Source: an uncultured Chloroflexia bacterium
GTDB taxonomy: Bacteria > Chloroflexota > Limnocylindria > Limnocylindrales > CSP1-4
DNA: 64,000 nucleotides
Reading direction: 5' to 3'
NCBI GenBank assembly: GCA_963713975.1
Contig: OY970218.1
Location: forward strand, 537,451-601,450
The stretch itself is not shown here. Continued below: a report on this DNA, generated by a model with database tools.

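Follow-up and report, generated by a model that had tools for sequence, protein, structure and literature searches.

Gene content and organization of the island

The island is in kind a catabolic sugar operon, with a new enzyme set and a new probable substrate. Its genes very probably form one catabolic regulon, through which a small carbohydrate is imported and a non-phosphorylated, N-acylated amino sugar is degraded. Searches against Pfam and NCBIfam recovered every gene family named in the original prediction. Five of the island proteins have no equivalog in NCBIfam (June 2026). The G+C content of the window is ~70%, and genuine genes were told from spurious open reading frames by third-position GC. 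Starts were placed downstream of that of the longest open reading frame for EamA, cupin 1, the GntR regulator, the ABC substrate-binding protein (SBP) and permease 2, based on ribosome-binding sites, a lipoprotein signal, domain positions and ortholog lengths. The partial translational coupling proposed earlier is visible as start/stop overlaps at five junctions. ATGA overlaps join cupin 2 to the NagB-like gene, DegT to the Gfo/Idh/MocA dehydrogenase (Gfo), and Gfo to the ceramidase-like amidase; GTGA joins the two permease genes and TGATG joins LarA and EamA.

Housekeeping genes (LeuRS, ComEA, ComEC, HolA, RsfS, NadD, Obg, a LysM-M23 peptidase and Rho) lie directly upstream of the island, so its left boundary at EamA is sharp. 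DNA beyond position 64000 was read from the loci of relatives. A scan for promoters and terminators gave output at chance level.

Genes and repeated elements of the island, with positions in the window
Feature	Position	Strand	Basis
EamA transporter	48250-49209	-	Pfam/NCBIfam
LarA homolog	49209-50540	-	Pfam/NCBIfam
SDR	50552-51328	-	Pfam/NCBIfam
39-nt element, first copy	51415-51453		
Cupin 1	51490-51957	+	Pfam/NCBIfam
Cupin 2	51986-52309	+	Pfam/NCBIfam
NagB-like	52306-53073	+	Pfam/NCBIfam
DegT	53101-54309	+	Pfam/NCBIfam
Gfo/Idh/MocA	54306-55352	+	Pfam/NCBIfam
Ceramidase-like	55349-56626	+	Pfam/NCBIfam
SIS_2/UPF0309	56690-57448	+	Pfam/NCBIfam
39-nt element, second copy	57533-57571		
GntR/FCD regulator	57598-58380	+	PF00392 + PF07729
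SBP	58590-59975	+	Pfam/NCBIfam
Permease 1	60060-60980	+	Pfam/NCBIfam
Permease 2	60977-61822	+	Pfam/NCBIfam
NagA-like	61851-63068	+	Pfam/NCBIfam
PfkB kinase (convergent)	63110 to beyond window end	-	Pfam/NCBIfam

Predicted regulation

We identified a 39-nt element in the 161-bp region between the divergent SDR and cupin 1 genes, and a second copy (79% identity) between the SIS and gntR genes. The core of the element, TCTACTGTNGGACA, occurs as two exact copies in 64 kb, compared to 0.01 expected from shuffled sequences. A 24-bp near-palindrome (TGTCCrAnGnTCTAyTGTnGGACA) is present at both equivalent positions in ~25 orthologous loci. There are three copies in the rearranged loci L025, L029 and L035, in which gntR-Gfo is divergent from the SBP operon.

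The regulator has the HTH and FCD domains (PF00392 and PF07729) of a FadR-type GntR protein, and palindromic predicted operators lie upstream of the units. Given a predicted operator at both sites, we propose three transcription units under this single putative repressor. Thus, the common motif of the original prediction stands, but its two divergent units become three.

Conservation and variants

Among the species-representative genomes, the ceramidase-like protein has relatives in 40 Chloroflexota MAGs (many of them labelled Candidatus Limnocylindrales or Limnocylindria) and in one Bacillota MAG; no cultured organism was seen among them. All matches in a homolog search with the NagB-like protein were close orthologs from Limnocylindria; none came from a cultured organism or showed a new context. 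The window proteins mapped onto the loci of the ceramidase-like relatives as the full set in the same order. Over the 29 loci of at least 18 kb, genes for the NagB-like enzyme, SBP and both permeases are present in all, SDR and SIS in 28, DegT and Gfo in 27, the cupins in 26-27, the NagA-like enzyme and GntR in 26, and EamA and LarA in 21. The kinase was found in 13 of the 29, a figure that depends in part on where the fetched DNA ends. The island is kept while its flanks vary, even in the 92%-identical relative L030, and thus the block has been maintained as a unit. L025, L029, L031 and L035 carry this gene set in shuffled order.

Variants outside Limnocylindria were found by a search with the Bacillota homolog and genomic context look-up. 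Type I loci (L042, L084, L085 and L086) encode LacI, SIS, SBP, two permeases, the ceramidase-like and NagB-like proteins, an ANKH-like membrane protein (absent from L042), the NagA-like enzyme and SDR, and lack DegT and Gfo. Type II loci (L031, L034, L043, L044/45 and L087) encode SBP, permeases, optionally the NagA-like enzyme, the NagB-like protein, DegT, Gfo and the ceramidase-like protein, followed by either an AGE-like protein or cupins, SDR and PfkB kinase; SIS is absent. SIS and the DegT-Gfo pair are mutually exclusive in 9/9 distinct non-Limnocylindria loci, whereas Limnocylindria hold both. The AGE-like protein (~470 aa) is encoded in exactly the five loci without cupins. A second membrane transporter (EamA, ANKH-like or MFS) is usually close by.

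The comparison of the two types defines an invariant core consisting of the importer, two amidases (ceramidase-like and NagA-like), the NagB-like enzyme and SDR. The ceramidase-like protein is fused to the NagB-like protein in P0129 and P0130 (688 aa) and to a cupin in P0132 (582 aa). Genes for SDR, a 6-phosphogluconate dehydrogenase (6PGDH), PfkB and LarA are adjacent in L031, as are those for SDR and 6PGDH in L086. A NagB-like gene is coupled to the kinase in L019, cupin-cupin-SDR-PfkB form one operon tail in L044, and an IolB-family isomerase is encoded near the cluster in L084. More distant ceramidase-like relatives (L082 and L083, 30% identity) have unrelated contexts.

Enzymes related to amino sugar catabolism

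The NagB-like protein falls under every curated NagB cut-off (110.4 bits to TIGR00502, cut-off 236.9; 125.9 vs 326 for the best subfamily model). It has the NagB-type motifs LDEYVGLP and GIGENGHVAFNDP (the second also given as GENGHVAFNDP) and matches NagB models at 2e-36 vs 4e-12 for 6-phosphogluconolactonase; in view of these motifs and scores, we rejected a lactonase role. Across 13 sequences drawn from every cluster type, the residues matching E. coli Asp72, His143 and Lys208 do not vary, and Glu148 is conservatively replaced by Asp. The phosphate loop Thr41-Gly-Gly-Thr44 is replaced by Ala-Ala-Ala-(Ala/Pro) with a deletion (F-A-A-A-(A/P)) in all 13, and Arg172 by Gln in 12, leaving only Lys208 of the 6-phosphate site. 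Based on the structural literature for E. coli NagB, we take Asp72, His143 and Glu148 to be catalytic and Thr41-Thr44, Arg172 and Lys208 to bind the 6-phosphate.

The SIS protein is 40.5% identical to Streptomyces NagS. Five residues needed for catalysis in NagS (His53, Arg64, Glu94, Asp179 and Asn228; PMC12680351) are invariant in seven SIS orthologs. Of the phosphate-binding serines, Ser54 is kept, but Ser119 is replaced by Asn and Ser121 by Tyr in 7/7. NagS orthologs share at least 58.7% identity and are confined to Streptomycetaceae, where the gene is divergent from dmdR1 (PMC12680351). The SIS protein lies outside this range by its identity, its Chloroflexota host and its gntR neighbor. 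NagS homologs of other phyla, with 26-36% identity, have no or negligible GlcNAc-6-P dehydratase activity, and NagS is a phylogenetic relative of the MurNAc-6-P etherase MurQ (PMC12680351).

The NagA-like protein also falls below its family threshold (202.5 bits to TIGR00221, cut-off 225.65). The metal and catalytic residues (QxN or HxH, Glu131, His143, His195, His216 and Asp273) are all kept in nine sequences from all cluster types. Also kept is the anion site, THLGNGAH...(R/K)RHPNY, which comprises Asn212 and an Arg of the partner subunit (MSNagA numbering, PMC6016474). This site does not tell phosphate from carboxylate or sulfate. Mycobacterial NagA accepts GlcNAc-6-sulfate and is inactive on neutral GlcNAc (PMC6016474), so it is the anionic 6-substituent that matters. 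No sugar kinase upstream of the amino sugar steps was found in the conserved block of ~40 long loci. We infer that an acidic N-acetyl amino sugar, not phosphorylated and with a carboxylate in place of the 6-phosphate, serves as the substrate.

Other enzymes and transport

The Pfam match of the ceramidase-like protein (PF04734) is limited to residues 2-95. However, Foldseek matched its AlphaFold model (pLDDT 80, pTM 0.85) only to neutral ceramidases (4wgk, 2zws and 2zxc), over the whole length, with TM-scores of 0.70-0.73 by query length and E-values down to 8e-22. The protein has 425 aa, compared to 630-688 residues in solved neutral ceramidase chains, lacks the C-terminal domain, and occurs in a context of cytoplasmic sugar metabolism. 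Judged by spacing rather than residue-level superposition, its invariant residues (H89xH91, R140/141, H173, E354, Y384 and Y396) presumably include the two His, one Glu and one Tyr that bind zinc in ceramidases, as well as their catalytic His, Arg and Tyr. The strict ortholog group is narrow, but there is a wider uncharacterised ~430-aa family (487 clusters at 50% identity for E<=1e-30 and 5793 for E<=1e-10).

The nearest solved structures for Gfo are 3q2k (1.9e-61) and 3q2i (2.4e-56), followed by a match at 2.8e-31. We take the first two to be WlbA, the UDP-GlcNAcA 3-dehydrogenase; their labels in the search output are just 'oxidoreductase' and 'dehydrogenase'. The catalytic lysine of DegT lies within FSFQSSKPVNAGEGG, and its closest solved relatives are AHBA synthase, inosose aminotransferases and WbpE (8.6e-58), with NtdA at 4.5e-35. 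By sequence relationship and gene adjacency, Gfo and DegT constitute a WlbA/WbpE-type pair.

The best family for SDR is SDR-type D-mannonate oxidoreductase, at 261 bits (cut-off 281), and the ortholog from the type I locus L086 reaches 265 bits. The LarA homolog passes the cut-off for group 22 (NF052515; 469.9 bits vs 400). It shares 42% identity with Rxyl_2987, a protein with a signature given in the PMC7583248 supplement. When the two are aligned, its cofactor and catalytic motifs are seen to be kept, including the equivalents of LarA Arg75, His108, His174, Lys184 and His200. According to Desguin et al., group 22 is of unknown function and its associations are with SDRs, IlvD/Edd dehydratases, TRAP transporters, sugar kinases and glucuronate isomerase, while groups 19 and 20 are gluconate 2-epimerases (PMC7583248). 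None of larB, larC and larE was found among the open reading frames scanned in the 64-kb window.

Full-length orthologs of the kinase have 360 aa, a length that led us to reject an aldolase fusion; they are most like KDG (2-keto-3-deoxygluconate) and KDGal kinases but miss every cut-off. The 6PGDH that follows SDR in L031 (type II) and L086 (type I) is NAD-dependent and scores above its curated cut-off. Cupin 2 was rejected as KdgF, to which its similarity (E 4e-4) is below that to generic cupins. The AF2 model of cupin 1, from a two-sequence alignment, has a pLDDT of 62.6, which is insufficient for searching by fold. Among solved structures, SBP matched only generic CUT1 binders, which give no pointer to the ligand.

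Proposed pathway

N-acetyl-hexosaminuronic acids are our tentative choice of substrate class. A more specific proposal, which must be considered doubtful, is that the island encodes the first catabolic pathway for 2,3-diacetamido-2,3-dideoxy-hexuronic acids (as well as N-acetyl-hexosaminuronic acids). The former are widespread bacterial and archaeal cell-surface sugars. Wbp/Wlb chemistry would be reversed on free sugars, using carboxylate-specific NagA, NagB and NagS paralogs, a short ceramidase-fold N-deacetylase, interchangeable modules for C3 deamination (the SIS lyase, or DegT with the WlbA-like reductase) and a nickel-pincer LarA group 22 hexonate epimerase at the exit.

Two N-acetyl groups on such a substrate would explain the two universal amidases. 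The C3 amine might leave either through DegT and the WlbA-like reductase, as the Wbp pair in reverse, or through elimination by the MurQ/NagS-type SIS enzyme. The C2 amine would leave via the NagB-like enzyme to give fructuronate, and a 2-epimerase or isomerase step may be provided by the AGE-like protein or the cupins. Conversion to mannonate by SDR and then to gluconate by LarA group 22 is possible. The pathway may finish with kinase and 6PGDH, or via a KDG branch.

This uronate model lets each conserved gene do the usual chemistry of its family. The enzyme chemistry is not mechanistically exotic. Counting against the model are the absence of UxuA, UxaC and Eda from the island, the retention of both C3 modules in Limnocylindria, and the coupling of a NagB-like gene to the kinase in L019.

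Alternative explanations

Non-phosphorylative breakdown of neutral GlcNAc, ManNAc or another N-acyl-glucosamine is unlikely. Dehydration by SIS would give a chromogen-I-type 2,3-enamide for deacylation by the ceramidase-like or NagA-like amidase. The NagB-like enzyme, perhaps with a cupin, would then hydrolyse the enamine/imine to 3-deoxyglucosone, SDR would oxidise C1 to form KDG, and PfkB would phosphorylate it. NagS followed by NagA yields exactly such an enamine/imine on the phosphorylated sugar (PMC12680351), and the SIS protein retains all catalytic residues of NagS but not its set of phosphate-binding serines. The type I genes (SIS, Cer-NagB, NagA and SDR) would form a complete set, and the kinase coupling in L019, the operon tail in L044 and the resemblance of PfkB to KDG kinases also fit. 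However, type II loci wholly lack SIS, so DegT and Gfo need a role that this route leaves unexplained, as it does LarA group 22 and the adjacent 6PGDH. In addition, the NagA-like enzyme retains the anion-binding Asn/Arg of enzymes that refuse neutral GlcNAc (PMC6016474), and the dehydratase activity of NagS homologs at 26-36% identity is absent or negligible (PMC12680351).

We consider it quite improbable that the substrate is a 3-O-substituted N-acetylhexosamine, either N-acetylmuramic acid or an (unsaturated) uronyl-(1->3)-HexNAc disaccharide. The MurQ/NagS-like SIS enzyme would eliminate the 3-O-substituent, so no glycosidase is needed; the freed lactate or uronate would pass to LarA or to cupin, SDR and kinase, and the amino sugar to amidase and the NagB-like enzyme. 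CUT1 transporters usually carry di- or oligosaccharides, yet no glycoside hydrolase is encoded in the island, which has a CUT1-type transporter. The relationship of NagS to MurQ and the membership of LarA in the lactate racemase superfamily are consistent with this route. The trio of cupin, SDR and KDG-kinase-like enzyme presumably resembles KdgF/KduI-KduD-KdgK, but the similarity of cupin 2 to KdgF is weak and non-specific. The AGE-like protein is weakly similar to GlcNAc 2-epimerases (Pfam), the clan of which also contains six-hairpin unsaturated-uronyl hydrolases. Against such a substrate, type II loci lack SIS, the contexts of group 22 LarA proteins are those of sugar acids and not lactate, and freed neutral GlcNAc needs a kinase for the canonical route, for which the NagB-like and NagA-like enzymes are non-canonical. 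A 2026 preprint on mycobacterial MurNAc recycling names no relevant enzymes.

A C1-oxidative route is very unlikely. Gfo or SDR would form the lactone or N-acetyl-glucosaminate, followed by an amidase, conversion of D-glucosaminate to 2-ketogluconate by DegT, a KguK-like role for PfkB, reduction by SDR, and 6PGDH. Marine bacteria degrade oxidised chitin products via GlcNAc1A to KDG (PMC9537276), lactonases also occur within the NagB fold family, and the adjacency of SDR and 6PGDH in L031 and L086 would be accommodated. However, the NagB-like protein has the deaminase motifs and far better NagB scores, Gfo is far nearer the 3-dehydrogenase WlbA than sugar 1-dehydrogenases, and type I loci lack both Gfo and DegT. 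The deacetylase of the published route is related to amino-acid deacetylases, not NagA (PMC9537276).

The probability is also very low for an ordinary phosphosugar pathway (of the GlcNAc-6-P, GalNAc-6-P or kanosamine-6-P type), in which a distant kinase would supply 6-phosphates to NagA, NagB and SIS, and DegT/Gfo would be NtdA/NtdC reversed. The folds and family names are those of NagA, NagB and NagS, the NagA-like anion site is kept, and a ROK kinase (at 25.1-26.1 kb) and an MsiK-type ATPase are encoded at 16.9-26 kb in the same window. Yet all three proteins miss curated NagA/NagB cut-offs or the NagS identity range, the NagB loop, Arg172 and two of three NagS phosphate serines are replaced consistently across lineages, and the conserved block of the long loci has no upstream kinase.

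The aminocyclitol alternative of the original prediction receives very little credence. DegT would convert an inosamine to an inosose, with inosose/inositol redox by Gfo. DegT has an SFQxxK motif and relatives among glutamine:inosose aminotransferases, Gfo matches the IolG model at 3e-44, and an IolB-family isomerase occurs in L084. However, the NagB-like (with its aldose-deaminase residues), NagA-like and SIS enzymes require a 2-amino/2-acetamido aldose, type I loci dispense with DegT/Gfo, IolE, IolD and IolJ-type genes are absent from the island, and WlbA is much closer to Gfo than IolG-type structures.

That the genes are unrelated neighbors, or a biosynthetic or salvage cluster, is extremely improbable. 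In its favor, other known pairs of the DegT/WlbA-like kind are all biosynthetic, and the EamA family includes exporters (its best NCBIfam match is the aromatic amino acid exporter YddG). Against it, the units have a common predicted operator, core enzymes are fused, the block is kept through differing flanks and rearrangements, the set includes an importer, regulator, deacetylases and deaminase, and the genes examined include no glycosyltransferase, nucleotidyltransferase or acetyltransferase.

Novelty and significance

The original prediction held that the gene set matches no described pathway. The searchable literature agrees; the GlcNAc1A route uses other enzyme families, and we found no description of catabolism of hexosaminuronic or diacetamido-uronic acids. 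Much of the organic nitrogen in soil is in amino sugars from microbial necromass, and Limnocylindria are abundant, uncultured soil bacteria. Because no such catabolism was found in the searchable literature, a route dedicated to acidic cell-surface sugars with multiple N-acetyl groups would close a gap in soil amino sugar turnover. If the proposal is true, a dehydrogenase-aminotransferase pair of the WlbA/WbpE type would be seen in catabolism for the first time. The island yields testable substrate hypotheses for the ~430-aa short ceramidase-like family, LarA group 22, UPF0309/NagS homologs outside Streptomycetaceae, and a NagB subfamily without the phosphate site. Although the hosts are uncultured and the substrate is a predicted one, the island makes several orphan families, and a missing part of soil amino sugar turnover, directly accessible to experiment.

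Comparison with known systems

GlcNAc-6-phosphate catabolism by NagA and NagB, with the Streptomyces NagS branch (PMC12680351), uses the same three folds and catalytic residues. The logic is also the same (deacetylation, then deamination/isomerisation to a 2-ketose), with a linked transporter and repressor. However, each of the three island proteins misses either its family threshold or the identity range of the orthologs, and the phosphate contacts of NagB (TGGT loop in 13/13, Arg172 in 12/13) and NagS (Ser119 and Ser121 in 7/7) are replaced. The island also lacks a sugar kinase or PTS, and adds the ceramidase-like amidase, DegT, the WlbA-like dehydrogenase, cupins, LarA and SDR.

With hexuronate and hexonate catabolism (UxaC-UxuB-UxuA-KdgK-Eda; KdgF/KduI-KduD-KdgK; GntE-type LarA gluconate 2-epimerases, PMC7583248), the island shares a fructuronate-reductase-like SDR, a KDG-kinase-like PfkB, small metal cupins, a LarA from a group with sugar-acid context and, in two variants, 6PGDH. 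Unlike those pathways, it lacks UxaC, UxuA and Eda, its cupins are not KduI or KdgF orthologs, and entry would be through an amino sugar deaminase instead of glucuronate isomerase.

The kanosamine pairs NtdC/NtdA and RifL/RifK likewise couple a Gfo/Idh/MocA dehydrogenase with a DegT-family aminotransferase at C3, and RifK (AHBA synthase) is the best solved relative of the island DegT. However, these pairs are biosynthetic, and nothing else from their clusters occurs in the island.

The oxidative chitin pathway for GlcNAc1A (OngB deacetylase, OngC deaminase, KdgK and KdgA; PMC9537276, PMC12017989) follows the same scheme, in which an acidic N-acetyl amino sugar without phosphate loses its acetyl and amino groups and is phosphorylated only as the keto-deoxy-acid. 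Gene for gene, the kinase type alone is in common. OngB is evolutionarily linked to amino-acid deacetylases and not to NagA (PMC9537276), and the pathway has no counterparts of the NagB-like, SIS, DegT, Gfo, ceramidase-like and LarA proteins.

The biosynthesis of UDP-2,3-diacetamido-2,3-dideoxy-mannuronic acid (WbpA, WbpB/WlbA, WbpE/WlbC, WbpD and WbpI) resembles the island in its adjacent, coupled genes for a 3-dehydrogenase-like Gfo and DegT, and WlbA is by far the nearest solved relative of the island dehydrogenase. The DegT motif and best matches are at least as like AHBA synthase and inosose aminotransferases as WbpE. WbpA, WbpD, WbpI and glycosyltransferases are absent from the island and ~40 related long loci. 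In contrast to the biosynthetic clusters, the context is catabolic (importer, repressor, deacetylases and deaminase), and the substrate is presumably a free sugar instead of a UDP-sugar, on which the pair would run in reverse.

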